A stretch of DNA of 64,000 bases. Source: a virus (Duplodnaviria; Heunggongvirae; Uroviricota; Caudoviricetes). The position numbers were made by a program, and so were the translations under genes. Shown here piece by piece: positions 1 to 57,319 of this stretch (its first letter is position 1; each line of letters begins with the position of its first letter). The notes under the pieces were generated by a model. It saw nothing but the letters and a program-made list of their open reading frames with translations, made no database searches and was not told the DNA's origin. The DNA lies in IMG/VR virus record IMGVR_UViG_3300036766_001364, positions 1 through 64,000 of that record; one strand, written 5' to 3'.

Positions 1-10
1 CCAGCTAATC

Positions 11-307
11 ATGCAAACATTCAAACTCAACACCGAATCAGCCGCAGCCGTCGACCGCACCTACGACAACGACACTACCGTCACGTCGACCGTCCTCGAT
101 TTCATCGGCCCCGCCATCGCCCAAGCCGTCGATGCCGCCGTCGCCATCGACCACGACACCGACTTCATCAGCTCACTCGACTTCAAGGCCACCTTCGTCT
201 GCGACCACACATTCTACTTTCTCGACGACCTCATCCTCACCGTCCGCGTCCCCAACATCGACGACGACATCGTCATCACGCACAACGTCCAAGCTCACAA
301 CAACTAA
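11..307 (+). CDS. Possible acidic 98-aa protein with atypical codon usage (almost only NNC/NNA codons, + strand strongly G-depleted). It may instead be a non-coding stretch with strand asymmetry.
   Basis: ORF in track. No Gly/Arg-rich junk. Third positions nearly all C or A, unlike the rest of the window. Only 10 nt upstream inside the window. Confidence 0.3.
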   Translation: MQTFKLNTESAAAVDRTYDNDTTVTSTVLDFIGPAIAQAVDAAVAIDHDTDFISSLDFKATFVCDHTFYFLDDLILTVRVPNIDDDIVITHNVQAHNN

Positions 308-1024
308 CGCCCGTCAGCAGCCAGCCGGCCCTCACCGGCCGGCTGCGCTGTAACCGCTCTCGTCCCCCTCTCCAGCTCTCTCTGTGGCAGCCCTCCACCC
401 CTGACCCGGGTCGGAGGGTTTTCCCATGTCCGGGCGCTGGCCCTCTCTCCCTCCTTCTCTCTGTCTCTCGCCCCCCCGCACAGAAAAAGGCCGACCGGGG
501 GTGGGGGCGCCTCCGTATATGGCGAACAGGGGGCGGGGGGTACCTCTAAGGTCCCCCGAACGGTCTCGATGCTCATCGCCCCGTCTGGACCGTCTCTCCC
601 CAGAGCCCCACGGGTCCGTCGGTGGAGAGAGGCCGCCCGCCCGCGTGGCCGACGCGGCGAGGAGTCCACGGGCGCGACCGGACCGGGAGCCTCCGTCTGT
701 CCGAGAACGGGCGGGGGGAGGACCGCGCGATCGCCCGCTGCCGACGGGCGACCCCCTTTCCCACGCCGCGGGCGCGCCGCGCTCTGCCGGCCCCGCCGTC
801 GCCGTGCCGAGCCGGGCTTCGCCGCGGCCTTGCGTTGCCCGGCTGTGCATTGCCGTCGCCGAGCCGTGCGACGCGTCGCCGACGCATTTCCCTGCCATGC
901 ACAGCCGTAGCCACGCTACGCTCCGCCACGCTCCGCCAGCGCAGCGCGTAGCATCGCCTTGCCCGTGCTCTGCTGTCTCCGCGCGTTGCCCGGCCTTGCG
1001 TTTCTCGCGCGAGACACCGCCGCG

Positions 1025-1062
1025 CAGGGCGTCGCCGACACAGGGCGTCGCCGACACAGGGC
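1025..1062. repeat. Exact tandem duplication of the 16-mer gtcgccgacacagggc (1031-1046 and 1047-1062), preceded by a cagggc copy
   Basis: Read directly in the sequence. Confidence 0.8.
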
Positions 1063-1200
1063 CGTGCCGCGCTCCGCTACGCAGCGCCGCGCTAGACTCT
1101 GCCGCTGCTGAGCCACGCGCGGCTGGGCTATGCCCTCGCTGCGCAGTGCCGTCGCCGGACGGGACCTCGCCGCGGCCTTGTAGCGCGTCGCCGCTGCCTG

Positions 1201-1312
1201 ACGCGGCATAGCAGTGCCGTAGCCGCGCTTATACTGTGCTGTGCCCGCGCTTCTGCCGCCGCTCGACTCTACGGCGCATCGCCGCCGCCTGACATGGCAT
1301 AGCAGTGCCGTC
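1201..1312. repeat. Imperfect direct repeat of about 30 nt, gcctgacRYggcatagcagtgccgtMgc (about 1205-1233 and 1283-1312). A third gcagtgccgtcgc copy lies at about 1143-1158.
   Basis: Read directly. Lies in a 75% GC region (340-1350) with no convincing coding frame. Confidence 0.7.
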
Positions 1313-1352
1313 GCGTCGTCGCGACCCACGGGGACGGGTCGCGCTCGCTCGC

Positions 1353-1955
1353 CTATTCGCGAGTGAGCTCGTAGGTGAACGTGCCCCAGGAACCCGAGCG
1401 CCACTGCCCGAGGCCGATGAACTGCCCGTAGTCGAGCAGCTCGCGCAGCAGGCCCTCGGTGATCTCGGGCTTCAGGACGGAGAGCTCCGCGGAGATCGAG
1501 GTGCCCGCGGGCAGCTCCTCGGAGCGCGCGAGGCCGACGCGCGGCCCCTGCTGCGTCATGGCGCGCAGCGGGCGCTCGTTGATCGTGACGCCCCCGCCGT
1601 CGGGCACTCTCAGCGGGATCAGGCGCGGGCCGACGAACACCGTCGCGGCCACCTTCGAGCGGAGGTTCTTCACCCCGCCCGAGTTGCCCGCGCCGTTGAA
1701 CACCAGCCCGGCCTCCTTGAGGAACCCCTTGACCTGGTAGTTCCAGAGCGCGGGGTCTCCGGCCGCGTCGCGGTGGAACCCCGTCGTGCCCTTCTCGATC
1801 GCCTCGGGGATGGAGTCGATCGTCTCGTCGACCTCTCCCTCGGTCGCGCCCGCGTCGAGCGCCTTCTTCCTGAGGAACTCGGTCGCCACTTCGCGCTGTG
1901 GCTGCGAGCCGAGCAGCGGCTCAGAGAACGTCAGGACCAACCTGTACTTCTGCAT
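1353..1955 (-). CDS. Hypothetical protein, 200 aa. The C-terminal Gly-rich segment GLGQWRSGSWGTF is noted.
   Basis: ORF on the minus strand with normal amino-acid composition. The overlapping + strand frames are Arg/Pro-rich junk. Confidence 0.5.
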   Translation of the reverse strand: MQKYRLVLTFSEPLLGSQPQREVATEFLRKKALDAGATEGEVDETIDSIPEAIEKGTTGFHRDAAGDPALWNYQVKGFLKEAGLVFNGAGNSGGVKNLRSKVAATVFVGPRLIPLRVPDGGGVTINERPLRAMTQQGPRVGLARSEELPAGTSISAELSVLKPEITEGLLRELLDYGQFIGLGQWRSGSWGTFTYELTRE

Positions 1956-2085
1956 CGCACGTCTCCCGTGTGTGTCGCGGCGACGGGCGGCGTCGCCGAT
2001 CCCCGGGCCACCCAGGACGGGCGCCCCGGCCCCACCGTACCATCGCGGACCGGAAGAGAGACGGATCCGCCGCTCGTGGCCGGCG

Positions 2086-2349
2086 TCACTCCGCCCGATC
2101 TGCGTTGAGCCTCGGTCTTTGCGCTTCGGAGACGGTCTCTTTCAAAGCGATGGCCGCGTACCAGTCTGCGGCCGATGCGACCGTCCCGCAGTGCTGGCAG
2201 AAGAGGTGGCGATCGACCGTCGAGTCGGAATATTCGCGCAGGACGTGCGTGCGATCGACATAGCCCGCGCCGATCTGCCTCGGCGCGGCGCACGCGTTGG
2301 TCGGCAGGAACATGGCAACCACCTCTCTCGCGATACGAGCGCATCGCAC
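2086..2349 (-). CDS. Hypothetical small protein (87 aa or shorter)
   Basis: Minus-strand ORF diverging from the 2375 promoter region. Confidence 0.3.
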   Translation of the reverse strand: MRCARIAREVVAMFLPTNACAAPRQIGAGYVDRTHVLREYSDSTVDRHLFCQHCGTVASAADWYAAIALKETVSEAQRPRLNADRAE

Positions 2350-2370
2350 CGCGGCTGAACGCGCTCTCCG

Positions 2371-2380
2371 GTACTATAAT
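2371..2380 (+). promoter_or_regulatory. Promoter-like gtacTATAAT, a perfect -10 hexamer at 2375-2380, 30 nt upstream of the GTG at 2410
   Basis: AT-rich island in a GC-rich genome, followed by the RBS GAGGAGG at 2393-2399. Confidence 0.5.
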
Positions 2381-2409
2381 AGCGCCACGACGCAGAGGAG
2401 GACCGATCA

Positions 2410-2796
2410 GTGAACGACCGAACCGATCCGTCGCCGACGGGCCGCCTCGGCGGGCGTGGCCCCAGCATCCAGAACGCGACGGTCCGCACCGCGAGGGGCG
2501 GCGAGATCCGAGACGCTTTCACGGGCGCGCGCCTTCCGACCGGGGCAGAGAGAGCGGCCCTCGCCGTCGCCGCGAGAGGGACGGTCCACGACTGGCCCTA
2601 CGAGATCCGCGACGAGGAGATACGCGAATGCCGCCGCCGGGGATGGCTCTTCACGTGGCACTCGGTCGTCACGTCGGCGGGCGGCGGCGCTGTGGGCGGC
2701 CGGAACAAGGACGAGATCACGGCGCTTGGGCTGCGCGCACTCCACGCCTATTCGACGCCGGCCAGCGGGCCGTCATCGCTCGCGGAGGGATCGTGA
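2410..2796 (+). CDS. Hypothetical protein (128 aa), GTG start
   Basis: GAGGAGG RBS 10 nt upstream; ORF in track. Confidence 0.6.
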   Translation: MNDRTDPSPTGRLGGRGPSIQNATVRTARGGEIRDAFTGARLPTGAERAALAVAARGTVHDWPYEIRDEEIRECRRRGWLFTWHSVVTSAGGGAVGGRNKDEITALGLRALHAYSTPASGPSSLAEGS

Positions 2797-2972
2797 CCGT
2801 CGCCAGCTGCCTGGACTGCGGGAGAGAGATCTCCGGTCGCCCGATAGAGGATCGATTGAAGATCCTCACGGCGCTGGGGATACCGGCCGCCGTCCGCAGC
2901 GTGGTCTGCGCTCCCTGCGCTCGGGCCGGTGCGGAGCGCGAGAAGGCGTCCGACGGGAGCGGCGGGCGATGA
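2793..2972 (+). CDS. Small zinc-ribbon protein (CxxC...CxxC), 59 aa, GTG start
   Basis: GGAGGGA RBS; 4-nt overlap with the previous stop. Confidence 0.4.
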   Translation: MTVASCLDCGREISGRPIEDRLKILTALGIPAAVRSVVCAPCARAGAEREKASDGSGGR

Positions 2973-3295
2973 CCAAGACCGAGATCGCGGTCTTCGTCGC
3001 CGTCGGCGCCGGCGCTTTCTTCATGCGTTTCGAGGGGTGGACGCCGAACTTCTACTTCACGTTTATCGGCGGCGTGATCGGCGGCGCGCTCATCGGGTTC
3101 GACGAGGGCAAGCGCAGCGCGATCAAGTCTGCGCGCTCGCTAGGCGAGGACGCGATCGCCGACGAGCCCTGCTTGACGTGCGGACTCCAGTACAGCGCGG
3201 GCGACTCGATCGGGCCGGCGGGCTGGCACGACGGTCACTTCTGGCGCGACCGAGCGGGCCTGACGCCGGCCCAGAAGCGGAGGACCCGTGCCTGA
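2969..3295 (+). CDS. Small membrane protein (hydrophobic N-terminal half)
   Basis: ATGA overlap with the upstream gene; hydrophobic segment FVAVGAGAFFM...FIGGVIGGALIG. Confidence 0.5.
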   Translation: MTKTEIAVFVAVGAGAFFMRFEGWTPNFYFTFIGGVIGGALIGFDEGKRSAIKSARSLGEDAIADEPCLTCGLQYSAGDSIGPAGWHDGHFWRDRAGLTPAQKRRTRA

Positions 3296-3509
3296 CGAAT
3301 TCCCACAGGACGCGATCTGCCACGGCGGGAGCTCGAACGCCTTTGGTGCCCCGTGTACGAAAGACCCGACGCACGACATCACGGTTGACGGCGGGGGTGG
3401 GTTCATCGGCAGACTCTGTGACGAGTGTCTGGATCGCTACGAGGAGCTCTTTACCGGTAACGCTCGACGAGCGCTGCGGTACAAGACTGAGCAGGAAGTG
3501 AGAGGATGA
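3288..3509 (+). CDS. Hypothetical Cys-containing small protein
   Basis: ORF in track, overlapping gene chain. Confidence 0.35.
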   Translation: MPDEFPQDAICHGGSSNAFGAPCTKDPTHDITVDGGGGFIGRLCDECLDRYEELFTGNARRALRYKTEQEVRG

Positions 3510-3793
3510 CTGAACGCGAAGACGCCGATGACTTTCGTTTTCACGGCGATGCTCCAGTCCGTCTCGTGCTGACAGACTCTTATGTGGTCGCGCCAGGTGG
3601 GATCCCGGCATTCGAGGCCGCCGCGGCTCGAGACGCCCGCGTCGAGACTCTGGTGCGCTTGCTCCGAGCGCGCGAATGGTCGCCCACCGGCGGCCCAGAG
3701 GGGCGTGAATGCGACGACTGCGGGCGCTTTCAAAGCGAGGGTCACGCCCGGGACTGCGAGCTCGCGAGGGCGATCGAGGGACGAGATGGATGA
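3506..3793 (+). CDS. Hypothetical protein (95 aa)
   Basis: ATG with GAGAGG RBS. Confidence 0.45.
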   Translation: MTEREDADDFRFHGDAPVRLVLTDSYVVAPGGIPAFEAAAARDARVETLVRLLRAREWSPTGGPEGRECDDCGRFQSEGHARDCELARAIEGRDG

Positions 3794-4196
3794 CGCCCGG
3801 CTGCCAGACGACGAACAGTTCGAGCGCGCGACGGCCGCGAAGGTGGTGCGATCCTCAGACGGCGGGTGGTCTGTCACGCGGACGAACGGCTGGGGCTGTT
3901 CGTCCAAGACGCCGGGATCACGCCCGAGGTCGGCGACGCGTTCAGGCTCTACGGGCGCGGCATCGGCTACGCCGTGCGCGGGCGAGGTGACATGCGCCCA
4001 TTTCCGTGGCACCCGCGACCCATTCGGCACGACGACGCGCATCCAGCACGGCGACGACCCCGAGGCCGCCCGCGACTTCACGGCGGGGGTCATGCCCGAG
4101 GGGGTGTGCGAGAACGGTCACGACGTGGCGCTTGAGCGGTGGCTGTTTGCCACGATGCGCCACGCCGGGTGCGCACCGACAGGAGAGGAGCGATGA
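3786..4196 (+). CDS. Hypothetical protein (136 aa)
   Basis: In-frame ATG at 3786 after GAGGGA; upstream part of track ORF 3582 is probably not translated. Confidence 0.45.
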   Translation: MDDARLPDDEQFERATAAKVVRSSDGGWSVTRTNGWGCSSKTPGSRPRSATRSGSTGAASATPCAGEVTCAHFRGTRDPFGTTTRIQHGDDPEAARDFTAGVMPEGVCENGHDVALERWLFATMRHAGCAPTGEER

Positions 4197-14960: not shown

Positions 14961-15119
14961 CTGCCGCTGACAAGGGCGATGTTCAGGCGATCTCGATCGG
15001 CAGCCAGACGCTGTGGGGCAGGGTCGCAGCGATCGGCCTCATAGGGGGCGAGCGGTACTACTGGATGGTGGACAAGAACTCCGTGTCAACGATGCCGGCG
15101 TGCGTGGTGGAAGCGTGAA
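14958..15119 (+). CDS. Possible small ORF (53 aa, TTG start)
   Basis: GC3-rich frame after the 14960 stop; weak support. Confidence 0.2.
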
Positions 15120-15290
15120 GACTCTCTCGTTTGGACGCGTTCATCTTGGCGTCTCGACCCAGCTCATGCTCGGCGTGGCTTGGTTCGACTCCTCGCTCGA
15201 GCTGAGCGTTGGCCCGTTCTTCGTGCTCGTGCTCTTCTGGAAAATAAAGAGCGACGGCGCCCACGGCGCTGTCGAGACAGCGGGCCCCAG

Positions 15291-16532
15291 ATGATTGATG
15301 TCTTCAAGACCGAGAACGCGTTCGGGACCGGGGAAGTCCGCTCGTGGGCGTCTCTGCTCGACGAGAACTGCCGCCGGCAAGCCGAGGCGATCAGTCGCGT
15401 GCCGATCCTGGACGGCTACCTCGCGCTCATGCCCGACGCCCACTTCGGCTACGGGCCGCCTGTCGGCTCGGCGTTAATCACGACCGACGCGATCATGCCC
15501 TACGCGGTCGGGAGTGACATCGGCTGCGGGATGATCGCCATCAAGACAACCATAGAACGGGGCCGATTCGGCGAAACCGAACTGCACCGGCTGGCGGGGA
15601 ACGTCCGCACCCTGATCCCTTCGGGGCCAGCAGCACACGAGACGCCCTCGGAACTCAGCGATGAGTTCTTCGCGGGCTATGGCGATGCGCCGGGCCTCAC
15701 TCTGTTTGGGCAACGGGCGGAACACATGGCCTCAACCGCTCGGCGACAATTCGGTACTCTCGGCGCGGGCAATCATTTTGTGGAAGCGTGCGTCGGATTC
15801 GATTCGCCCGAAGCGCCCGTTTGGCTTGTGCTTCACAGCGGATCACGCGGCATCGGGAAGATGCTCTGCGACGTTCATGTAGCGGCTGCCAAGGCGGTCT
15901 GCATGAGAGACGTGGAGCGGCTGGAGTCCCCCGACTTCGCCTTCGTGCGGCGGGGCGATCCCGCGTATGGGGCATACATCGCGGACATGGTGTGGGCGCA
16001 GAATTTCGCTCACCACCAGCGCGAGGCAATGATGGAGGCGTTCATCGACGCCGTCAAGACTTCGCTCGGTATCACACACGACTCGCTCGACTACGAGACC
16101 GTGGCGAACTGCCACCACAACTACGCCGAGGAGATCGCCCCGAGTCGGTGGCTGACCCGCAAGGGCGCGATCGACGCTTCGCTCGGCGCCGTGGGCGTCA
16201 TCCCCGGCTCGATGGGCGCCGCGACATACATCGTCCGCGGCCTCGGCAACGAAGAAGCGTACTGCACGTCTCCGCACGGGGCGGGTCGACTGCTCGGACG
16301 CGGCGTCGCTCGGCGCACCCTGAGCCTCGACGACTTCAGGGCGCAGATGGGCGGCCGGACGTGGCAGGACCGAGACGCCGACGAGCTGCTCGACGAAGCG
16401 CCGGGGGCGTACAAGCCGATAGAGACCGTGATCGCAGACAGCGCGTCGCTGGTCGAGACGACCGCCGTGTTGAGTCAGTTCTTCAACTACAAGGGGGTCG
16501 GCTCGGGCCACGGGAAAGGCGTGAAGCGATGA
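15291..16532 (+). CDS. rtcB: RNA-splicing ligase RtcB (3'-phosphate/5'-hydroxyl RNA ligase)
   Basis: LMPDAHFGYGPPVGS, GSDIGCGMIA, NCHHNYAEE, SPHGAGR. ATG at 15291 is the likely start; the upstream part of track ORF 15180 is not RtcB-like. Confidence 0.9.
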   Translation: MIDVFKTENAFGTGEVRSWASLLDENCRRQAEAISRVPILDGYLALMPDAHFGYGPPVGSALITTDAIMPYAVGSDIGCGMIAIKTTIERGRFGETELHRLAGNVRTLIPSGPAAHETPSELSDEFFAGYGDAPGLTLFGQRAEHMASTARRQFGTLGAGNHFVEACVGFDSPEAPVWLVLHSGSRGIGKMLCDVHVAAAKAVCMRDVERLESPDFAFVRRGDPAYGAYIADMVWAQNFAHHQREAMMEAFIDAVKTSLGITHDSLDYETVANCHHNYAEEIAPSRWLTRKGAIDASLGAVGVIPGSMGAATYIVRGLGNEEAYCTSPHGAGRLLGRGVARRTLSLDDFRAQMGGRTWQDRDADELLDEAPGAYKPIETVIADSASLVETTAVLSQFFNYKGVGSGHGKGVKR

Positions 16533-17008
16533 GTCCCTCAACGAGCCGTGACGACGCCACCAGAATGTTGATAGAGGCCGTGCGGCTAGAACACGCGGCC
16601 CATGGGAACCCACGCGACGGCGATTGCGCGCTCTGCGTCGCTCTCCGCGACCTCGACGATGCGCCTGAAGAGACCGACGCAGACCGCGTCTTTCGCAAGC
16701 TGGCACGATCGTTCCCCATCTGGCGAGATGGCCAGCGGACGCCGGCAAACCACGATTGGCTGTGTGGACGATTTCTCAACGAAGTCTTGGGGACGACCTA
16801 CAAACACGAGTGGATAGGCGTCCAAGCCCAAGAATGGACCGATGCCGATGCGGCGCTCGACGCTTATCTCGCTCACGCTCAATCGAACGGCGGGGTGAAG
16901 CTAGAGAAGCTGCGACGCGCCGCGGCTGGCGTGTTTCCCGACGGCGATAGGAACGCGCCATCGAGGGCTTGGGATGAGCTCCGCAGCGCACTGGATGAGA
17001 CGCGATGA
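16529..17008 (+). CDS. Hypothetical protein, paralog family A
   Basis: See 4193..4642. Confidence 0.5.
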   Translation: MSPSTSRDDATRMLIEAVRLEHAAHGNPRDGDCALCVALRDLDDAPEETDADRVFRKLARSFPIWRDGQRTPANHDWLCGRFLNEVLGTTYKHEWIGVQAQEWTDADAALDAYLAHAQSNGGVKLEKLRRAAAGVFPDGDRNAPSRAWDELRSALDETR

Positions 17009-20458: not shown

Positions 20459-20881
20459 TTGAACGTCATCTTCCTCGACATCGACGGCGTGCTGAACACG
20501 CCCGAGACCCCAACCCGCACGCGCGACGGGCGTTTCCTCGGCCTGGACCCCGTCTTAGTCGCGCGGTTCTGTGAGCTGCTCGCGCGGACGGACGCGAGGG
20601 TCGTCCTGTCGTCGACGTGGCGCGGGGTTCTAGAGCTCTACGACATAGTGGCCGCGGCCGTGCCGGTCATGGACGTGACCCCGTATTTCCCAGGAGAGAT
20701 GCGCGGGACCGAGATCGCTTCTTGGCTGGGCTCTCACCCAGACGTCGAGCGATACGCGATCATCGACGACGACCGAGACATGCTGCCGTCGCAGATCGCA
20801 TTCTTCACTGACTACAGCGAGGGGTTGACAGACGGGATCGTCGAGCAGATATGCGCGCACTTCGAGAGGGGAACGCGGTGA
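20459..20881 (+). CDS. HAD-superfamily phosphatase (polynucleotide 3'-phosphatase / nucleotidase-like)
   Basis: Motif I IFLDIDGVLNT, motif AIIDDD; TTG start. Confidence 0.6.
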   Translation: MNVIFLDIDGVLNTPETPTRTRDGRFLGLDPVLVARFCELLARTDARVVLSSTWRGVLELYDIVAAAVPVMDVTPYFPGEMRGTEIASWLGSHPDVERYAIIDDDRDMLPSQIAFFTDYSEGLTDGIVEQICAHFERGTR

Positions 20882-21141
20882 CGATCTACGTCGACGCCAT
20901 GTACGCGCGGTTCGGGCGCATGAAGATGTCGCACATGATCACGGACGGAGACGACGATGAGCTGCACGCGATGGCCGACGCGATCGGGGTCGCGAGAAAG
21001 TGGTACCAGGGAGATCACTACGACGTCTGCATGTCTAAGCGCCGGCTCGCCGTGGCGCGGGGAGCGCTTGAGATCGGACCGCACGAACTGGGCGCGTGGC
21101 TCAGGAATCGCCGCAAGGACGGGAGAGCGCACCGTGGCTAA
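20878..21141 (+). CDS. DUF4031-family protein
   Basis: VTIYVDAMYARFGRMKMSHMITDGDDDELHAMADAIG...WYQGDHYDV; GTG at 20878. Confidence 0.55.
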   Translation: MTIYVDAMYARFGRMKMSHMITDGDDDELHAMADAIGVARKWYQGDHYDVCMSKRRLAVARGALEIGPHELGAWLRNRRKDGRAHRG

Positions 21142-25304: not shown

Positions 25305-26186
25305 GTGACGCTCTCTACAACATCGACTAGGGTCGTCGGCATCGACGAAGCCGGTCGCGGAGCGTGGTCTGGCCCACTCGTCGTCGGCGCTGCGGTCGAG
25401 CCCGACGGCGTCCCGCCGTGGTGGGGACAGCTCGACGACAGCAAGCTCCTCTCGCCGCGCCAGCGCGAAGGGCTCTATTCGCTCATGCTCCGCGACGGAG
25501 TCAGGCACGCGCTCGGATGGGTCTCGGCGTGGGAGATCGACGGGCGCGGCATGCAGTGGGCTTTCAGAGAGGCCGTCAGGCGGGCGCTGTTCGCGCTCGG
25601 TCCCATCGAGGGCGGCCGCACGATCCTCGACGGAGACACGACCGCGGGCGTGGCAGACGAGTGCCTCATCGGGGCCGACAAGGTCGTCCCCGCGGTGTCC
25701 GCGGCGTCGATCGCGGCGAAGGTGTCACGCGACCGCTACGTGACCGAGGTCGACGGAGCGCTCTGGCCAGAGTACGGGTTCGCCGCGCACAAGGGCTACG
25801 GCACGGGCGACCATCGGAACCGCATCGCGGAGCACGGATCGGCGATGGTCCACAGGCGATCGTTTAAGCCGCTGCGGGGGACGCGCGTCACCGAGCGCAT
25901 GGCGCGCCCGCGCTACAGGCTCGGCAGCCTGTCGATCGACCACGCCGGGACGCCGCTCCTGACGCTCAGGGGCGAGAAAGACGCCGACCGCGACGCCGTC
26001 CGTCACGGAGACCTCCGGCAGCGGCAGGTCTATCCGCTCGATCAGCAGGCCATATCTCACTTCACGCTCCATCCGGCGTTCGCCTCGGGCGCAACTGCCG
26101 CAGAGACGCGCTACGAGATGGCGCGCGTCTTCAACGCGTGGGAGATGATGAAGAGCGTCGACGACAGGTTCTGGAGGTACCAGTGA
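25305..26186 (+). CDS. rnhB: Ribonuclease HII with a C-terminal extension of about 80 aa
   Basis: VGIDEAGRGAWSGPLVVGAAV...DSKLLS...KVSRDRY...HKGYG matches the RNase HII core. Confidence 0.8.
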   Translation: MTLSTTSTRVVGIDEAGRGAWSGPLVVGAAVEPDGVPPWWGQLDDSKLLSPRQREGLYSLMLRDGVRHALGWVSAWEIDGRGMQWAFREAVRRALFALGPIEGGRTILDGDTTAGVADECLIGADKVVPAVSAASIAAKVSRDRYVTEVDGALWPEYGFAAHKGYGTGDHRNRIAEHGSAMVHRRSFKPLRGTRVTERMARPRYRLGSLSIDHAGTPLLTLRGEKDADRDAVRHGDLRQRQVYPLDQQAISHFTLHPAFASGATAAETRYEMARVFNAWEMMKSVDDRFWRYQ

Positions 26187-30438: not shown

Positions 30439-31431
30439 ATGGCTTGGATAGGTTTCGTCATCTTTTTCACGCTCGCGCTCGGTGGGGCGATCGCCTTCGC
30501 GCGATTCTACGACGCCGAACCCAGACCCACAACGGGCGAATATGGGAATGCCATTGCGCCAACCGACACGCGCCCGTGGACGCGACGCATTAGGCGTTAC
30601 TCGGTCATCGCGTACGCCGTGCTCGTGGCGCTCTTCTCGTTCCTCTTTTCGGTCAACGTCATCCAAGCGGGAGACGTCGGCATCGTCTATCAGTTCGGCT
30701 CGATCGTCGGACAGCGGGACGCGGGGTTCCAGCTCACCTTCCCGTGGCAGAGCATCACGACTCAGAGCGTCCAGGTCCAGCGGTTCTCGAACAACGGCGA
30801 GAAGGACCAGCCGTACGTCGGCTTCTCGAAAGAGACCCAGGACGTCTTCATCAGGGCCACGGTCAACTACTCGGTCTCGCCGGACGCCGTCCAGAACCTC
30901 TATCGCACGGTCGGCAGCGATTGGTTCAACAAGCTCGTCGCCCCGAGAGTGCAGAACTTTCTCAAGGAAGAGACCGTCAAGTACTCTGTTACAGACATCG
31001 CGCCGCAGCGCGAACAGATCCGCCTCGCCGTGAAACAGCGGCTCATCAACGAGCTGAAGCCCTACTCGATCACGGTCCAGGACTTCCTCCTCGACAACGT
31101 CGACTTCGACCAGTCGTTCAAGGATTCTATCCTCGCAAAACAGCGGGCCGTCCAGGACGCCGAAGCGGCCAAGAACAAGGTCGAGCAGACGAAGGCAGAA
31201 GCGCAGCAGGCCGTCGAGCAGGCGACGGGTCAGGCGAACGCGGCCGTCGCGTTGGCCACCGGTCAGGCCAAAGCGAACGACCTGCTCAACGCGTCGCTGA
31301 CGCAGAACGTGCTCGAATACGCGGCCATCAACAAGTTCTCGCCCAACGTCCAGATCGCGCTCATCCCGTCTGGGCAGGGGCTCATCTTGGACCCGTCGAC
31401 GTTCCTGAAGCCGGTGACGGCGGGGAAGTGA
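30439..31431 (+). CDS. SPFH/band-7 (prohibitin/HflK-like) membrane protein with a C-terminal coiled coil
   Basis: N-terminal TM, then the SPFH core VNVIQAGDVGIVYQFGSIV...FIRATVNYSV...ILAKQRAVQDAEAAKN. Confidence 0.8.
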   Translation: MAWIGFVIFFTLALGGAIAFARFYDAEPRPTTGEYGNAIAPTDTRPWTRRIRRYSVIAYAVLVALFSFLFSVNVIQAGDVGIVYQFGSIVGQRDAGFQLTFPWQSITTQSVQVQRFSNNGEKDQPYVGFSKETQDVFIRATVNYSVSPDAVQNLYRTVGSDWFNKLVAPRVQNFLKEETVKYSVTDIAPQREQIRLAVKQRLINELKPYSITVQDFLLDNVDFDQSFKDSILAKQRAVQDAEAAKNKVEQTKAEAQQAVEQATGQANAAVALATGQAKANDLLNASLTQNVLEYAAINKFSPNVQIALIPSGQGLILDPSTFLKPVTAGK

Positions 31432-40894: not shown

Positions 40895-41202
40895 TCTTCC
40901 TTACGCGTGTACGCGCGCAAGAGACCTGCGGTCTCTGGGCTGGAGGGCTCTGCTGATCCCGGTCTCTGGCTCTCTTGTCCTTCAGGAAACAGGAGCGCTA
41001 GGCCTCTCGGTCCAGAAATCCAGAGTTCCCGAGGGACGCGTCCTTCGAGGGGTCCAGTGCGCGGTCGGACGCCCCTGCGGGCGCCGCGGCGAACAGATGT
41101 TACCCGTGCTGGATCGGTCTCCGTCTCAACCGCGGGTGGGTACCATCGGTGCATGCTACAGGACGCTTCTGAGTGACGCGACAGACGAGCCTCGTCCCGC
41201 CG

Positions 41203-42369
41203 ATGAGATCGGGTGAGCTGGACCCGGCGAATGCGCAGAGCGTGAGCCTCGCCGACAGCTATCGAGACTCGAAGTGCACGCGGTGCTCGCTGTCAGAGTA
41301 CGCGCAAAACGTGTGCCTCCCCGGCGAGGGACCGGTGCCAGCGCGCGGGATGATCGTCGCCGACGCCCCCGGCATCCCAGACGACGAGAACGGGAGGCCG
41401 CTCCACCAATCGACCGAGGCGGCGGCCTATTTCGACGCCGTGATCAGGGACGCCGACCTCGATCGCGCCGACCTGTACGTCACGTATGCGGTCAAGTGCC
41501 GACCGCCGTACGGAGACCGGCGCGCCGACCTCATCAAGGTCGCCCAGAAGGAGTGCGCGGTCTATCTCGACAGCGAGATCGCGGCCGTGAAGCCGCGGGC
41601 GGTGCTGTCGATGGGGGCGCCGGGTTACTACTACTTCACGCACGCGCAGGGCATCATGAAGCACCGCGGACAGGCGGTCTACGACGCCGCGCGCGGGCTG
41701 TGGGTCGTCCCCACGGTGTCTCCGATCGCCGTCCTCACGAACCCCGCGCTCGAGGAGGATTTCACCGCCGACGTGAAGAAGTTCAGGAGGCTGATGCTCG
41801 GGATCGACGACGCGCCGAGGGTCAACGTCATCGAGGTCCGCACGATCGAGGACCTGCGCGCGATGGTCTCCGACCTGGATTCGCAGGCGCCCGCCGTGCT
41901 CACGTTCGACCTCGAGACGCGCGGGTTCAACGACGTCAGGGTCGACGGGACGAGCTTCGTCTGGACCGTGGCGCTGACGCGCGGGCACCGGACGCGGGGC
42001 CTGATCGACTCCTACGTCGTGCCGTTGGAGCACCCCGAGTCTCCGTTCCTGGACGACGTCGGACAGCTCAGGGAGGCGGTGGGCTCGGTCGTCGGGCTCG
42101 TGCAGGGGTCTCGGTGCAGCGGGCACAACGTCAAGTTCGACTATCGCTGGCTCGAAATGCTGCGGCTCCGCTACGCCGAGTGCGGCGACGAGGCGCTCAG
42201 AGACGCAGCGCGACGGCTGAAGGAGCGCGAGTACTGGCCCGTGGTCGCTCCAAAGCGCCGCGGCAAGAAGGCGATCCTCGCAGAGCAGCCAGAGCTCCCC
42301 ATGGGATCGGGAGCGATCGATCGCTCCAGCGACGACGATCCGCGCTCCACGCTCTCCGATGAGTTATAG
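41203..42369 (+). CDS. Fusion of a family-4-like uracil-DNA glycosylase to a 3'-5' exonuclease (Exo I and Exo II motifs of a family-A polymerase proofreading domain)
   Basis: CTRCSLSEY...CLPGEGPVPARGMIVADAPG (UDG-4 Fe-S Cys plus GEAPG-like motif); VLTFDLETRGF (Exo I DxE); HNVKFDYRWLE (Exo II); low-complexity C-terminal tail. Confidence 0.8.
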   Translation: MRSGELDPANAQSVSLADSYRDSKCTRCSLSEYAQNVCLPGEGPVPARGMIVADAPGIPDDENGRPLHQSTEAAAYFDAVIRDADLDRADLYVTYAVKCRPPYGDRRADLIKVAQKECAVYLDSEIAAVKPRAVLSMGAPGYYYFTHAQGIMKHRGQAVYDAARGLWVVPTVSPIAVLTNPALEEDFTADVKKFRRLMLGIDDAPRVNVIEVRTIEDLRAMVSDLDSQAPAVLTFDLETRGFNDVRVDGTSFVWTVALTRGHRTRGLIDSYVVPLEHPESPFLDDVGQLREAVGSVVGLVQGSRCSGHNVKFDYRWLEMLRLRYAECGDEALRDAARRLKEREYWPVVAPKRRGKKAILAEQPELPMGSGAIDRSSDDDPRSTLSDEL

Positions 42370-42377
42370 TTGACTGG

Positions 42378-42905
42378 ATGACCGAGCAACTCGTGCACTT
42401 CTTGTTCCCCACTCCAAAGGCCGAACGCGACCTGTTGGCGAAGCTGGCGTCGAGCGACGGCCAGGAGGCCGTCGTGATCACGTCGGGAGAACGCGAGGTC
42501 GCCCTCGCCGCGATGCAGCGGGCGCACCGCGGAGACCGCCTCGCCGAGAGCGTCGCCGCCACGCGACACGTCCTCTTCGCGGTCGACGCGCACTCGTGCG
42601 CCACCGTCGAACAGTGTCGGGACGACTTCGAGAACGATCGCCTCGCTCCCGGAGACATGTGTCCCTGGCAGGCGTCTCAGATCATGGGCTACTACGCCGA
42701 TGACGATTCCCCCAAGGTCAGCGGCGTCAACGGTGAGCTCCTCGCGGCGCTGGTCGCGTACACGCTGTGGCCCGCGTGGGCGGTCGCGATGGGTTCGATC
42801 AAGCTCTATCGCAAGCGGTTCAGAAGCAGACCGGGCGGAGACCCGTTTGCATACGATGATATCGAGAACGTAGATCGATCAGGACGCATGCGCTCGGCTT
42901 CGTAG
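42378..42905 (+). CDS. Hypothetical protein (175 aa) interposed between the exonuclease and polymerase parts of the PolA-like gene
   Basis: ORF in a third frame; no polymerase or nuclease motif recognised. Confidence 0.45.
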   Translation: MTEQLVHFLFPTPKAERDLLAKLASSDGQEAVVITSGEREVALAAMQRAHRGDRLAESVAATRHVLFAVDAHSCATVEQCRDDFENDRLAPGDMCPWQASQIMGYYADDDSPKVSGVNGELLAALVAYTLWPAWAVAMGSIKLYRKRFRSRPGGDPFAYDDIENVDRSGRMRSAS

Positions 42906-43129
42906 GGACGCGGCCCTGACGCACGAGGCGCTGTGGCGCCTGCAGAGGCGCGTCGAACCGCTGCTGGACCTCATGAGAGCGGCGAGAGAGGCAGACAGGC
43001 TCGCGTCCCTTGGAGACCACCCCGACGCCCGCGCGGCGCTCTTCCTGAGGGCAGCGATAGAGAAGTTTGAGGCGGACATCAGGCCGATCGGTTGAGCCGC
43101 CCGCCGGGACCGTCAGGTACCATCTCCGT

Positions 43130-44743
43130 ATGTCCATCTTCTACGACACGATGCTGGCCGCGCACTGCCTCGGAGAGGAGCGCGGCCTCTCGCTGCTGAA
43201 CCAAGCGAGCACCGAGCTTGGCGTCGACGACTGGGGCAAGGGCACCCACTCGTTCGGCGATGCGAAGACGCCTCCCGACCCGCTCTGGGGACCAGACGGA
43301 CTTGCGTACTACAACGCCCGCGACGCCGGGTACACCCACCTCCTCTACGAGGCGCAGCGCGATCAGCTCGTGGCGCACCAGGACCAGGCGAGGCTGATGA
43401 AGCTGCTCGCTTTCCCCGGGATGAACGCTGTGTGTCAGATGGAGCTCAACGGCATCTGGGTCGACCTCGACCGCCTTGAAAAGAGGCGCGAAGAGCTCCT
43501 CGCCAGGCGCGAGGCGGCCAGGATCGAGATGCTGCAGTACGTGTCTGATGATTTTCGAGAGAGCGCAGATTTCGCCAACGAACACTTCCTGCGCAGATGG
43601 ATCTTCGGCCAGCTCCCCGACGGGCTCGGTCTCGAGCCCGTCTCGTTCACCGAGAAGACGCAGAAACCGCAGGTCGACGAGGCGGCGCTCACGGCGCTCT
43701 CGGCGAAGCATCCCGCGATGGAGGTGCTCATGCGATTCCGTCGCGCGACGAAGCACGTGCAGTTCCTCGATGGGTGGAAGACGTTCATGGATCGCGGGCA
43801 CCGACTGCACCCGAGGTTCAACATGACGGGGACGGTCACTGGGCGGAGGTCGTGTTCCGATCCGAACCTCCAGCAGGTCCCGCGCGACAAGTACATCAGG
43901 TCGATCATCGGTGCGCCGCCAGGATGGCGGCTGCTCGAGATCGACTATTCACAGATTGAGGTGCGCCTGTCTGCGTGGTTCGCTGAGGAAGACACGATGC
44001 TCGCCCTCTACGCCGACGACAAGGACGTCTACATCCACATCGCGTCGCTCATCTACGAGAAACCAGAGTCCGAAGTCACGAGGTCCGAGCGGCAGGGAGC
44101 GAAGGCCGTCGTGCTCGGGTTCCTGTACGGCATGGGTCCGCGCAGTTTCGTCATCTACGCCAAGGAAACATTCGACGTCGACTTCACGCTCGACCAGGGG
44201 CGCGCGTTCCGAGAGACGTTCTTCAGCGCGTACCCGCGCCTGCTGCCGTGGCACGATCGCCAGCGCAAGCTCGTCAGGCAGCACCTCCAGGTCTCGTCGC
44301 CGATCGGCAGGGTGCGCCACCTCAAGAGGGTGCTCAGCCTGGACGAATTCACGCGGGCGAAGGCCGAGCGCCAGGCGATCAACAGCCCCGTGCAGGGGTT
44401 CGGCGGGGACCTGACGCTCGCCACCAACCTGAGCCTCATGCCCGAGCTCGACCCCGAAGAGTGTCTCGTCGTGGGCGACATCCACGACGCGCTGCTCTTT
44501 CAGGTGCGCGACGACGTGTGGGAGAAGTGGGCCCATCGGATACTCACCGTCATGCAGGACCCGCCAGCGCTGAGCCCGTTCAACGCCAACGCGCCCGTCA
44601 GGTTCCTCGCCGAGGGCAAGATCGGCCAGCACTGGGGGCAGGGGCTCGAGTTCCTGCTGAAGGACTTCGGTCCAGACGGGACGCTCCCCGTCCAGTGGCA
44701 CGAAGAGTGGGAGAAGCTCTTGGCCGGATACGCGGTGGCGTGA
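43130..44743 (+). CDS. Family-A DNA polymerase, polymerase domain, beginning with the Exo III motif
   Basis: YYNARDAGY (Exo III YxxxD); motif A DYSQIEVRL; RRSCSDPNLQQVPRD; motif B RQGAKAVVLGFLYGMG; motif C VGDIHDALLF. The start may be further upstream (43067). Confidence 0.85.
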   Translation: MSIFYDTMLAAHCLGEERGLSLLNQASTELGVDDWGKGTHSFGDAKTPPDPLWGPDGLAYYNARDAGYTHLLYEAQRDQLVAHQDQARLMKLLAFPGMNAVCQMELNGIWVDLDRLEKRREELLARREAARIEMLQYVSDDFRESADFANEHFLRRWIFGQLPDGLGLEPVSFTEKTQKPQVDEAALTALSAKHPAMEVLMRFRRATKHVQFLDGWKTFMDRGHRLHPRFNMTGTVTGRRSCSDPNLQQVPRDKYIRSIIGAPPGWRLLEIDYSQIEVRLSAWFAEEDTMLALYADDKDVYIHIASLIYEKPESEVTRSERQGAKAVVLGFLYGMGPRSFVIYAKETFDVDFTLDQGRAFRETFFSAYPRLLPWHDRQRKLVRQHLQVSSPIGRVRHLKRVLSLDEFTRAKAERQAINSPVQGFGGDLTLATNLSLMPELDPEECLVVGDIHDALLFQVRDDVWEKWAHRILTVMQDPPALSPFNANAPVRFLAEGKIGQHWGQGLEFLLKDFGPDGTLPVQWHEEWEKLLAGYAVA

Positions 44744-51050: not shown

Positions 51051-51425
51051 ATGCCGCAGTGGGATCGACCGGTCGAAGACACGACGGGGACGCGCGGTCA
51101 CCGCGCGCTCCACGACGCTATCGTGGCGGTGGGGTTCGACGTCGAGGACGAGCACGCCGTGGGCCGATATTCGATCGATTGTTACGTGCGCGAAGCGCAC
51201 CTCGGCTTTGAGTTTGACGGCCCCAAGCACGGCTGGAGGAGCGCCAAGAAGCGCGATTCAGAACGCGACCTGTGGATCCGTGAGAACGGCGGGATACCGA
51301 TCATGCGCGTGACCGATAGAGACGTCTCACGGCGGAGCGAGCTGGCCGGTAGGATCCGACAGTTCATCATCGACAATGAGCACGACATCGCCGACAGGAG
51401 GGCCCAAGGATGGGCGCTGGTATAG
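51051..51425 (+). CDS. DUF559 / Vsr-like (PD-(D/E)xK) endonuclease-domain protein
   Basis: YSIDCYVREAHLGFEFDGPKHGW...RDLWIRENGGIPIMRV. Confidence 0.55.
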   Translation: MPQWDRPVEDTTGTRGHRALHDAIVAVGFDVEDEHAVGRYSIDCYVREAHLGFEFDGPKHGWRSAKKRDSERDLWIRENGGIPIMRVTDRDVSRRSELAGRIRQFIIDNEHDIADRRAQGWALV

Positions 51426-51793
51426 CGGACAACCTCCAGCAGATCATGGACGCGCAGGGACGCCTCCAGGAGCGCATGCTCCCGAAGTGGGTCGCGATGG
51501 GCGAAGCGCTCGGCCTGGACTACATGTCGCTCTACCTCAAGGAGAACTGCGTCATGCTGGTTGACGAAGCGCTCGAGGCGATGCACGAGACGCCGTGGAA
51601 GTTCCACAAGAATGACTTCGGACGAGCGATGCTTGACGGCGAGCGCGACCGCTATCTCCATGAGACGATCGACTGCCTCCATTTCGTGGTGAACATGCTC
51701 ATCTTCGCGGGCGTCACGTCTGCCGACGAGGTCTTGGCGCTCTATATGGAAAAGAACGAAATCAATCACGATCGCCAGGATCGGGGGTACTGA
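51410..51793 (+). CDS. MazG-like / dimeric-dUTPase-like all-alpha NTP pyrophosphohydrolase (candidate dCTPase/dUTPase, like T4 gp56)
   Basis: Alpha-helical protein with VDEALEAMHETPWKFHK...LHETIDCLHF acidic motifs; assignment from memory. Confidence 0.45.
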   Translation: MGAGIADNLQQIMDAQGRLQERMLPKWVAMGEALGLDYMSLYLKENCVMLVDEALEAMHETPWKFHKNDFGRAMLDGERDRYLHETIDCLHFVVNMLIFAGVTSADEVLALYMEKNEINHDRQDRGY

Positions 51794-51833
51794 GACGCCA
51801 CAGCTCCAGCCGAGGCAGACCCATAGCGCGATC

Positions 51834-52241
51834 GTGTGGATGCTCTCGGGCATGAGCGGGGTGTCGCGCGAGACGGTGCACGAGAAGTTCCAGGCGTTTC
51901 TGCAAGAGATATATGACAACCCAGACTTCAGGAAGAAGAAGGACGGATCGAAGATCAATTTCACGACGTTCAGGGGGAACGTCCACGACGCGTTCAGGAT
52001 GATCGAGACGGTGATCTACGAGCTGGACACGGCGAACGGCGCCGTCCTGAAGGCCATGCACGAGGGATACTTCGGCGGCGGGAATCTGAAGTCGATCAGG
52101 GAGAAGGTCGTGAGACTGGTCCGCGAACGGAAGCGCATCCCGATGCGAGCGAAGCGCGAGGGGATCAGAGTCGACCAGAAGCACAGGGGCGCGATCATCA
52201 CCGATCCCGCCGCAGCCGAAGCTCGACCGAGAGCAAGCTGA
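51834..52241 (+). CDS. Hypothetical protein (135 aa)
   Basis: ORF in track. Confidence 0.4.
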   Translation: MWMLSGMSGVSRETVHEKFQAFLQEIYDNPDFRKKKDGSKINFTTFRGNVHDAFRMIETVIYELDTANGAVLKAMHEGYFGGGNLKSIREKVVRLVRERKRIPMRAKREGIRVDQKHRGAIITDPAAAEARPRAS

Positions 52242-52699
52242 TGGCGGCAGATGACATCAATCGGTTCGAGGGAGAGTTCGAGTTCCTGTCGAACTTTTCG
52301 ACGTGTCGGATCGAATTCCGTGGACGGACGTTTCCGACCGTGGAGCACGCGTACCAGTCGGCTAAGACCGACGAACACCACTGGATCGACGCGATCCGGC
52401 AGGCGCCGACGCCGGCCGAGGCCAAGAAGCTCGGGCGGAAATCTCCCGTCCGGTCCGACTGGGAAGAAGTGAAGGAGGGCGCGATGATCGGTCTCCTCCG
52501 CGAGAAGTTCACGAACGAAATGCTGAGGTCGCTCCTCGTCGCTACCGGAGATCGGAAGCTCATCGAGGGAAACTGGTGGGGCGACCGATACTGGGGAGTC
52601 CATCGCGGCGAGGGCCTGAACCGGCTCGGCGAACTGCTGATGCAGGTCAGGAAAGAGATCGCGTCCGTGTATCCTCAGCCTGAGGAGTTTGTGTACTAG
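52241..52699 (+). CDS. NADAR (YbiA-like, DUF1768) domain protein
   Basis: FEGEFEFLSNFS...FPTVEHAYQSAKT...KKLGRK...REKF...LLVATGDRKLIEGNWWGDRYWG. Confidence 0.8.
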   Translation: MAADDINRFEGEFEFLSNFSTCRIEFRGRTFPTVEHAYQSAKTDEHHWIDAIRQAPTPAEAKKLGRKSPVRSDWEEVKEGAMIGLLREKFTNEMLRSLLVATGDRKLIEGNWWGDRYWGVHRGEGLNRLGELLMQVRKEIASVYPQPEEFVY

Positions 52700-53815
52700 A
52701 TGAACATCGCGCTCTTCAGGATCATGAAAAGCTTCAACTCTGGCCGCCAGGCCCTCGGAATGGGCGGGGGCGAGGAGTTCTCGACGATCGCGCGCGAGAT
52801 GGCGCGACGCGGACACCGCGTGACGGTCTACTGTGAGGTAGCGCGCACGTCCCGCGACGACCTCCTCGAGTGGGGCCTCAGGCTGAAGCCCGACGCCGCG
52901 CGCCTCGACGACGACGAGAACTGCCTGATCGTGGACAACGGGGCCGGGATCAATCTCCTGTGGGCGCCGAACCAGCTCGTCTTACCGCGGAGACTCGCTC
53001 GGTTCTACCAGCTCGTGTCGACGTGCGACGTACCGATCTTCTACTCGCAGAGCGACCCGGCGGTCAGCATGGCGATCGTCACCGAGATCGACGACTGGCT
53101 CAAGCTCCCGTCGAAGGTGGGCGTGCTCGAGTATATCACCGTACCAGAACGGGCGCTCGACGGCAAGCAGGTCATCGTGATGTTCACGCAGCATTGGCCA
53201 GACGAGTTCGCCACCAAGATCAAGTCGCGCTACGTGCAGATGGCGAAACACGGCATGAAGTACGAGCACCTCGACCTCTCGCCGACGGCGCTCATCGGCC
53301 GCGAGCGCCAGAACCCAAAGCAAGACCCCGAATACGACATCGTCTACGTGGGGAATTCACGCCGCCGAAAACGGCTGATCCCATACGTCAATCGTCCCGA
53401 CGCGCATGTGTGGGGCCAGTGGTCAGACCGCGTCCGCGCAGATCAGGTGCCGCTCGCCACGATGCACGGGAAGGTCGGCGTGCACCTGGTCCCCGGTGTG
53501 TACCACGACGGGCGCATGACGTTCGTCGTGCGCGACGACCACGAGCTCGGGTTCAACGCGCGGCCGACGCGCATATTCGAGTCAGTGCAGGCGGGATGCC
53601 CGACGTGGGTCGACGCGAAGACGTTCCGGGAGGGGTCTGAGCCGTATTGGCCGTGGCTGATCGAGCACGCCGACATCGATGCGCGGCTCGACGAGATGCG
53701 CGATCCGAATCGGCGTCGGAGCCTGGTCGGCCTGCAGCAGGACTTGGTCTCGTCTGTCGACCCGTTGCAGCCGATCGACGATCTTGAGGCCATCCTCGAG
53801 AAGCACCTGCGGTGA
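52700..53815 (+). CDS. GT-B fold glycosyltransferase (GT4-like); candidate DNA (hydroxymethylcytosine) glycosyltransferase
   Basis: N-terminal MNIALFRIMKSF..GGGEEFSTIAREMARRGHRVTVYC; C-terminal RIFESVQAGCPTWV (E...G.P motif). Confidence 0.6.
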   Translation: MNIALFRIMKSFNSGRQALGMGGGEEFSTIAREMARRGHRVTVYCEVARTSRDDLLEWGLRLKPDAARLDDDENCLIVDNGAGINLLWAPNQLVLPRRLARFYQLVSTCDVPIFYSQSDPAVSMAIVTEIDDWLKLPSKVGVLEYITVPERALDGKQVIVMFTQHWPDEFATKIKSRYVQMAKHGMKYEHLDLSPTALIGRERQNPKQDPEYDIVYVGNSRRRKRLIPYVNRPDAHVWGQWSDRVRADQVPLATMHGKVGVHLVPGVYHDGRMTFVVRDDHELGFNARPTRIFESVQAGCPTWVDAKTFREGSEPYWPWLIEHADIDARLDEMRDPNRRRSLVGLQQDLVSSVDPLQPIDDLEAILEKHLR

Positions 53816-54243
53816 GGCCGCCGCGAAAGCAGGCGTATTTCGACACCGCAGCGGTGTGGGCGCAGCAGTCCACCTGCAATCGGAAGCACGTGGGCTGCGT
53901 CCTGGTCAGTCCAGATGGGTTCGTGATCGCGACCGGGTACAACGGGTCTGAGCGCGGCCGACCGCACTGCGTGGATGTCGGGTGCTACGTTGTCGAGGGG
54001 CACTGCGCGCGGACGATCCACGCCGAGAAGAACGCCCTGCTGCAGGCCGCTTTTCGGGGCGAATCGACGCGGGGGGCGGGCTGCTACAGCACCATGAAAC
54101 CGTGCTTCCGATGTCAGATGGAACTGCGCCAAGCCGGGGTCGCCGAGTTCTTCTGGGTCGAAGACTACGACGACTATCCCGACAACCCGGGCGACATGTT
54201 CGACCTCGACGGGACGATTCGCGAGAGCTCAGAAACAGGATAA
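53812..54243 (+). CDS. dCMP deaminase (cytidine/deoxycytidylate deaminase family)
   Basis: HAEKNALLQAA ... PCFRCQMEL zinc-binding motifs; GTG start overlapping the upstream stop. Confidence 0.85.
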   Translation: MRPPRKQAYFDTAAVWAQQSTCNRKHVGCVLVSPDGFVIATGYNGSERGRPHCVDVGCYVVEGHCARTIHAEKNALLQAAFRGESTRGAGCYSTMKPCFRCQMELRQAGVAEFFWVEDYDDYPDNPGDMFDLDGTIRESSETG

Positions 54244-54282
54244 TATCCGGTCCATACGGTAGACGAGGGTGAATGTCAACGC

Positions 54283-57315: not shown

Positions 57316-57319
57316 TCGC

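Follow-up and report, generated by a model that had tools for sequence, protein, structure and literature searches.

The rtcB gene and its genomic setting

The window analysed here, a stretch of 64,000 nucleotides, comes from Logan contig SRR11714510_2722 (89,104 bp) of an uncultured tailed phage. Beyond about 4 kb the + strand carries nearly all genes, many of them small and overlapping. Among the window genes is a replication module whose DNA polymerase I is split into two pieces and which further includes a UvsX/RecA-like recombinase, a DnaB-like helicase and a primase; nucleotide-metabolism genes are present as well. The large terminase gene starts at window position 62814 and runs past the window end, and the portal protein gene comes next on the contig. 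The rtcB gene, which encodes a 3'-phosphate/5'-hydroxyl RNA ligase homologue (Table 1), is carried by the phage. A 99.8%-identical phage in a second sample (ERZ27247924) keeps RtcB with three amino-acid differences. A megablast search of positions 15000-17000 against deposited phages gave no match, so the window phage is not close to any cultured phage; the identity of its DNA polymerase to those of Gordonia phages does not exceed 36%. Genes of DNA-repair type in the phage include an RNase HII with DUF1643, a UDG-superfamily domain, an HhH-GPD protein and a Cas4-like nuclease.

The rtcB reading frame is open over 15180-16532, and translation from the ATG at 15291 gives 413 aa, with the stop codon at 16530-16532. 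This ATG overlaps the stop of an upstream ORF (ATGA, 15291-15294), it was also picked as the start by an independent gene caller on the source contig, and homologue alignments start within the first residues of the 413-aa protein; on these three grounds 15291 was taken as the start. The 159-aa ORF that follows is probably co-translated with RtcB, judging from the overlap of its start with the rtcB stop. In a profile search, PF01139 matched with 293.5 bits (E 4.5e-87), from position 1 to 426 of its 426 positions and over protein residues 30-402, far above the curated cut-off of 27 bits, and PHROG 1075, 'tRNA splicing ligase', matched with 362.7 bits. The only solved structures matched by the sequence were RtcB proteins (Pyrococcus, Thermus, human). 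An earlier note on this DNA had claimed a complete RtcB at this locus, and the gene was recovered at exactly those coordinates with the whole PF01139 profile covered. The same note placed it among 'small early genes'; the block of small genes is there, and 'early' is read from position only. A promoter and terminator scan of 11.5-21.5 kb gave counts not above those of shuffled sequence, and no transcription unit was definable in that interval.

Table 1. Features of the rtcB locus and of its surroundings in window coordinates, with the active-site residues of RtcB in protein numbering.
Feature	Position	Strand	Basis
Minimal Pol-beta-fold (MNT-like) nucleotidyltransferase, 133 aa	13500..13901	+	Fold and motifs
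59-aa ORF with hydrophobic stretch, stop overlaps RtcB start (ATGA)	15115..15294	+	Called on source contig; no Pfam hit
RtcB 3'-phosphate/5'-hydroxyl RNA ligase, 413 aa	15291..16532	+	Pfam PF01139, PHROG 1075
RtcB putative Mn1 ligands	C79, H182, H276 (E. coli Cys78, His185, His281)		Alignment; roles from PMC8051266
RtcB putative Mn2 ligands	D76, C79, H162 (E. coli Asp75, Cys78, His168)		Alignment; roles from PMC8051266
RtcB putative site of covalent GMP attachment (guanylylation His)	H329, in SPHGAGR (E. coli His337, Pyrococcus His404)		PMC8051266
RtcB putative 5'-OH strand-holding Arg	R186, in HSGSRG (E. coli Arg189)		PMC8051266
159-aa ORF, ATG overlaps RtcB stop (ATGA)	16529..17008	+	No Pfam or PHROG match
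Stand-alone HAD phosphatase, 'Swiss Army Knife RNA repair' type	20459..20881	+	PF18143 HAD_SAK_2, 85.4 bits
DUF4031 protein, 4-base overlap with HAD gene end	20878..21141	+	PF13223, 87.2 bits
RNase HII homologue	25305..26186	+	PF01351, 81.2 bits
SPFH/Band-7 protein	30439-31431

Active-site residues and predicted fold

Two alignments were used to examine the active site. The first contained E. coli RtcB (from NC_000913), two cultured-phage RtcBs and six database relatives, with the E. coli numbering mapped on, and the second contained 23 relatives. The catalytic columns are invariant in both, for the 10 residues D76, C79, N161, H162, H182, R186, H276, H329, R333 and R337. Residues kept beyond those in Table 1 are N161, R333 and R337 (E. 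coli N167, R341 and R345), plus the C-terminal K401-G402. Both sets of Mn ligands are conserved in the alignment with E. coli RtcB, which bears out the metal-binding His/Cys motifs read in the earlier note, and its HNY...GAGR signature was located as CHHNY at residues 274-278 and HGAGR at 329-333. Two findings had been named beforehand as able to overturn the reading, namely mutated catalytic residues or an inactive fragment; the residues tested are kept and the gene is full length.

The AF2 model of the protein has a mean pLDDT of 81.8 and a pTM of 0.86. In a structure search with this model, all 16 PDB matches at E<=0.001 were RtcB, with query TM-scores of 0.63-0.75, and the predicted fold is that of RtcB. 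Judged by its sequence, the window gene is a catalytically intact, complete and phage-borne rtcB, and its enzymatic assignment as an RtcB-type RNA ligase can be made with high confidence. The one oddity of the protein is an 11-residue Gly/Lys-rich C-terminal tail, VGSGHGKGVKR, beyond the conserved terminal Lys-Gly, which is predicted to be disordered.

Subtype, relatives and origin

Several known RtcB subtypes were considered and rejected. The E. coli-type equivalog model (NCBIfam NF007153) gave 143.9 bits against a cut-off of 407, and no RtcA or RtcR was seen among the called neighbours, which sets the gene apart from the rtcBA-rtcR type. The model of PrfH-associated RtcB (TIGR03073) gave 114.9 bits against a cut-off of 271.8, and no release-factor-like neighbour was found, so that assignment to the ribosome-repair type was also dropped. 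Among NCBIfam models the best score came from NF052663, one of two models of intein-containing RtcB, with a match that spans the extein parts. An intein was nevertheless ruled out, as the alignment of the 413-aa protein with E. coli RtcB is contiguous and the scores for NF052663 and NF038162 (273.7 and 85.9 bits) lie below the cut-offs of 1050 and 1150.

The nearest relatives of the window RtcB are uncultured sequences with 55-66% identity. Three near relatives were inspected; all are stand-alone chromosomal rtcB genes surrounded by housekeeping genes such as groES/groEL, uvrB and riboflavin genes, and their contigs measure 3.1 Mb, 34 kb and 85 kb. Another uncultured phage-like contig has an RtcB with 60% identity. 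Chloroflexota/Dehalococcoidia MAGs provide the best matches from named genomes (54-57%), more distant relatives come from Acidimicrobiales (44%) and cyanobacteria (~40%), and cultured actinophage RtcBs are 38-41% identical. In a rough neighbour-joining tree, built without support values, the window RtcB falls inside an uncultured/Chloroflexota clade, apart from the actinophage clade. The tree is indicative only and suggests separate capture of RtcB by phages; the position of the window copy apart from the actinophages is modest evidence that phages captured the gene more than once.

Neighbouring genes and candidate partners

The earlier note had pointed to a HAD phosphatase at 20459 and an RNase HII at 25305, and both are present. 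The HAD gene lies 3.9 kb and about 14 genes from rtcB, and its DxD motif is intact (DIDGV). The 120 homologues listed are all stand-alone and 130-200 aa long, and the HAD was for this reason rejected as a fused RNA-repair component. Cultured phages that carry HADs of the PF18143 type are mostly large ones with Gram-negative hosts, and there these HADs usually lack annotation. RtcB itself needs no 3'-phosphatase. In DNA replication and repair, RNase HII works on RNA-DNA hybrids; the homologue in the window, preceded by a weak DUF1643 match and lying 8.8 kb from rtcB, more likely serves DNA replication or repair than RNA repair. The nearby HAD and RNase HII thus add little to a counter-defence reading of RtcB. 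On DUF4031, essentially no literature was found.

A tRNA/tmRNA scan of the window and about 13 kb of flanking contig (~77 kb) detected no gene. Over the window and flanking contig, an Rfam scan gave no family at threshold, including introns, Y-RNA and tRNA-like partners. Pfam/PHROG scans of about 70 further ORFs revealed no polynucleotide kinase, 2H/cyclic phosphodiesterase, Tpt1, archease, RtcA or ATP-dependent RNA ligase. RtcR and PrfH were not detected among the RtcB neighbours scanned, nor was a recognisable endoribonuclease among the genes scanned.

Proposed function and alternatives

Metal-independent RNases leave 2',3'-cyclic-phosphate/5'-OH ends. The RtcB-type ligase made by this tailed phage probably reseals RNA cut in this manner by host RNases during infection. 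With GTP and two Mn2+ ions, His329 would become guanylylated, as in E. coli and Pyrococcus RtcB (PMC8051266). The enzyme would hydrolyse the 2',3'-cyclic phosphate of the RNA to a 3'-phosphate and move GMP onto this end to form RNA(3')pp(5')G, which the 5'-OH end would then attack to reseal the strand. The targets would be tRNA, or rRNA or mRNA, cut by metal-independent host RNases such as anticodon nucleases, HEPN-type toxins or CRISPR-associated RNases, and their repair would allow translation of phage proteins to go on. The sequence evidence favours none of these three RNAs as the substrate. For cellular RtcB operons, a response to cutting of the anticodon loop by colicin D and by VapC has been reported (PMC7790460).

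We lean towards a counter-defence role for the phage RtcB, which is what published work leads one to expect (PMC3203893, PMC7824862). Other genes of conflict type in the phage genome, namely NADAR, a YAcAr SLOG domain and the SAK-type HAD, agree with it. Its activity, its in vivo substrate, the timing of its expression and this role are all points that we infer. The earlier note went further in stating that the presence of the gene implies a host that deploys RNA-cleaving defence; such a host can be inferred from the gene and is not implied by it. Counting against a repair role, no end-healing partner of RtcB was detected among the neighbours scanned, and no tRNA gene in the ~77 kb examined. 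Its nearest relatives are also ordinary stand-alone chromosomal genes, so it could be a recently captured passenger.

Three other activities were weighed against resealing of host-cut RNA. RtcB could serve the repair or tolerance of DNA ends, by sealing or GMP-capping DNA 3'-phosphate ends and joining 5'-OH DNA so that the genome survives breaks made by nucleases or by damage. In vitro, the E. coli enzyme can join 5'-OH DNA and add a cap to DNA 3'-phosphate ends (PMC8051266, PMC7790460), and the phage has the many DNA-repair-type genes listed above; however, none of these adjoins rtcB, the nearest being 8.8 kb off, and the literature consulted gives no established in vivo DNA role for any RtcB, RNA sealing alone being physiologically supported. 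A DNA role is considered unlikely. It is also improbable that the enzyme mends or processes RNA cut by the phage itself, through an endoribonuclease of its own (in host shut-off or transcript processing) or in RNA circularisation or splicing. Against the tRNA-splicing role of RtcB in archaea and eukaryotes (PMC8051266), the proposed prophage-encoded tRNA endonucleases (PMC7790460) and the many neighbouring ORFs of unknown function stand the empty scans reported above, with no tRNA gene in ~77 kb, no Rfam family, introns included, at threshold in the window and no recognisable endoribonuclease among the genes scanned. Ribosome repair, with RtcB resealing 16S or 23S rRNA after ribotoxin cleavage on the model of PrfH-RtcB2, is a sub-case of the resealing of host-cut RNA rather than a true alternative to it. 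Here the precedent is a bacterial RtcB paralogue reported to repair damaged ribosomes together with PrfH (PMC9304027); the score of 114.9 bits against the 271.8 cut-off of the PrfH-associated model and the lack of a detected PrfH-like gene among the neighbours speak against it, and little probability is given to it.

The remaining alternative is that rtcB was recently acquired from a bacterial chromosome, has no role in infection and is not yet lost. This would agree with the stand-alone chromosomal setting of the closest relatives whose context is known. The comparison with the sister phage fits as well, since the three codon differences are all non-synonymous (3 of 3, with 0 synonymous), although they are too few to show selection. 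On the other side, the catalytic residues are all kept, ATGA start/stop overlaps are found on both sides of the gene, and its GC3 of 0.78 is like that of neighbouring genes. Another uncultured phage-like contig moreover encodes a 60%-identical RtcB, and phages with an RtcB number in the hundreds. There is a slim chance that the gene is such a passenger.

Relation to known phage and cellular systems

Of 50,697 deposited phage records, at least 648 encode an RtcB homologue; most of these belong to Mycobacterium, Bacillus, Listeria, Brevibacterium, Caulobacter and Gordonia phages, and the matches listed bear the annotation 'RtcB-like RNA ligase' or 'tRNA splicing ligase'. Pope et al. (2011) proposed for cluster K mycobacteriophages that a phage RtcB guards against host tRNA cleavage (PMC3203893), and Iyer et al. 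(2021) gave a general version of this proposal for jumbo phages (PMC7824862). The empty tRNA scan means that the pairing of tRNA and RtcB behind the 2011 hypothesis is absent here. A literature search found no experimental test of a phage RtcB, and the only functional datum found is that over-expressed Adephagia gp84 mildly inhibits growth of M. smegmatis (PMC11373665). Phage RtcB and its counter-defence hypothesis are already known, and the window gene adds one more intact example.

The closest counterparts in cultured phages are actinophage RtcBs, for example gp84 of Mycobacterium phage Adephagia (cluster K1) and gp74 of Gordonia phage Culver, which are likewise stand-alone RtcBs of ~400 aa, share the catalytic residues and have small non-structural genes around them. 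Cultured actinophage RtcBs differ from the window RtcB in forming a separate tree branch, and the window copy has no tRNA gene and carries the C-terminal tail. The RtcBs of Chloroflexota/Dehalococcoidia MAGs and of soil and groundwater bacteria have the same length and motifs as the window RtcB, yet the Chloroflexota-type copies are chromosomal, in housekeeping neighbourhoods on contigs of tens of kb to Mb, whereas the window copy is in a phage. E. coli RtcB is similar in length (408 vs 413 aa), all its experimentally defined essential residues align, and the same chemistry is expected of the window protein. The two are 36% identical, and E. coli RtcB belongs to the RtcR-regulated rtcBA operon, whereas the window copy has neither the RtcA cyclase nor RtcR nearby. 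Phage T4 follows the same proposed logic with Pnkp and Rnl1, which undo the PrrC cut of the tRNA-Lys anticodon loop with its 2',3'-cyclic-phosphate/5'-OH ends (cited in PMC7824862). In T4, healing by a kinase-phosphatase precedes an ATP-dependent ligase, whereas RtcB uses GTP and Mn2+ to seal the ends directly, with no healing required. Neither a kinase nor an ATP-grasp/Rnl ligase of the T4 type was found in the window by Pfam/PHROG scans.

The window gene is mildly distinctive in its clade affiliation, its lack of tRNA genes in the ~77 kb examined and its short C-terminal tail, none of which alters the picture. Mildly distinctive, too, is a neighbourhood with the HAD, DUF4031, nucleotidyltransferase and SPFH genes. 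It extends the phage RtcBs to a lineage common to Chloroflexota and uncultured soil and groundwater bacteria. Repeated capture of RtcB, if borne out, would agree with recurrent selection for the resealing of RNA breaks that have 2',3'-cyclic-phosphate/5'-OH ends.

A nucleotidyltransferase upstream of rtcB

The nucleotidyltransferase ORF of Table 1 lies 1.4 kb upstream of rtcB and has no Pfam or PHROG match, and its family comprises more than 1,500 proteins. Invariant positions in the family alignment are G43, with S44 next to it, D53, D55 and D102, which gives a G-S...DxD...D pattern, and the structure model (pLDDT 88.6) has the MNT-like fold. In a HEPN-MNT toxin-antitoxin pair an adjacent gene would encode a HEPN RNase; the ORFs flanking the nucleotidyltransferase matched nothing in Pfam or PHROG, and by eye they show no obvious Rx4-6H motif. 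HEPN RNases produce RNA ends of the type that RtcB seals, and for this reason a nucleotidyltransferase near RtcB is suggestive. Only eight cultured phage records carry the family, however, and in all three of the other phage contexts inspected no RtcB was nearby within the stretch examined. A conserved association of the two genes was rejected on these contexts, and their proximity is treated as coincidental until shown otherwise.

RNA-repair systems as laid out by Burroughs and Aravind in 2016 are said to combine a ligase, a nucleotidyltransferase, an end-modifying phosphatase or kinase and an SPFH or Ro scaffold. Their components reportedly sit in one operon or fusion and co-occur across genomes. 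In the window the nucleotidyltransferase, the SAK-type HAD and the SPFH protein are all present but dispersed over 18 kb, and no conserved linkage of the HAD, DUF4031, nucleotidyltransferase or SPFH gene with rtcB was found. These genes might conceivably work together, although dispersed, as a phage toolkit that counters HEPN-type or anticodon RNases. The nucleotidyltransferase, as a decoy antitoxin, would then AMPylate a host HEPN RNase and thereby silence it, RtcB would reseal RNAs already cut, and the SAK-type HAD with the DUF4031 protein and the SPFH protein would provide end-processing and a scaffold. Such a toolkit is very unlikely. If it existed, it would represent a phage strategy to 'neutralise and repair', captured from a Chloroflexota-like RtcB lineage.

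RtcB Tail, HAD Phosphatase and SPFH Genes

In the phage-encoded RNA ligase RtcB, residues 403-413 (16500-16532) form an 11-residue Gly/Lys-rich extension past the Lys-Gly where other RtcBs end. This tail, predicted to be disordered, is absent from all the homologues aligned. Its origin may be no more than read-through to the ATGA junction, where the RtcB stop overlaps the ATG of the next gene. Further features of the window are collected in the table.

Further features of the window
Feature	Position	Strand	Basis
YAcAr (SLOG-family) domain protein, 142 aa	6304-6732	+	PF10686, weak match
SAK-type HAD phosphatase and DUF4031 gene	20459-21141	+	HAD PF18143, stand-alone
SPFH/Band-7 protein	30439-31431	+	PF01145, 90.5 bits; PHROG 200 'lipoprotein'
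DNA polymerase I, two ORFs	41173-42369 and 43067-44743 (region 41173-44743)	+	Consecutive parts of PHROG 17
Nucleotide-metabolism cluster	51410-59109	+	dUTPase_2, dCMP deaminase, thymidylate-kinase-like, thymidylate-synthase-like
NADAR-domain protein	52241-52699	+	PF08719
C5 DNA methyltransferase with insertion	55090-57315	+	PF00145
Large terminase subunit	62814-64000, continuing past window end	+	PHROG 38, 121 bits

The HAD phosphatase, of the SAK ('Swiss Army Knife') RNA-repair type, is directly followed by the DUF4031 gene with a 4-base overlap, and there is essentially no literature on DUF4031. Burroughs and Aravind reportedly proposed in 2016 that SPFH modules are scaffolds of RNA-repair systems. 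No tRNA-like RNA was found near the SPFH gene.

Nucleotide-related Genes and Internal Insertions

ADP-ribose derivatives are substrates processed by NADAR enzymes, and the NADAR gene is therefore a candidate counter-defence gene. It is flanked by dUTPase-like and dCMP-deaminase genes. The weakly matched YAcAr domain is a further one of the NAD/nucleotide-signalling type, encoded in the early region. The nucleotide-metabolism cluster may be a sign of a modified-base pathway.

DNA polymerase I appears to be split across two ORFs separated by a 175-aa ORF (42378-42905), with a UDG-superfamily domain at the N-terminus of the first piece. The C5 DNA methyltransferase is itself split by a LAGLIDADG/intein-like insertion (PF03161; PF14890 faint), and the 1048-aa portal, encoded just past the window end, also carries an internal insertion, matching PHROG 36001 like that of the methyltransferase.

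Window Ends

Positions 1-4000 have a higher G+C content (0.69-0.70 vs ~0.63) and hold the only convincing minus-strand genes of the window (1353-1955 and 2086-2349); a 200-aa minus-strand product in these first 4 kb is without any family match. Toward the other end, the large terminase gene marks the beginning of the packaging and structural module.
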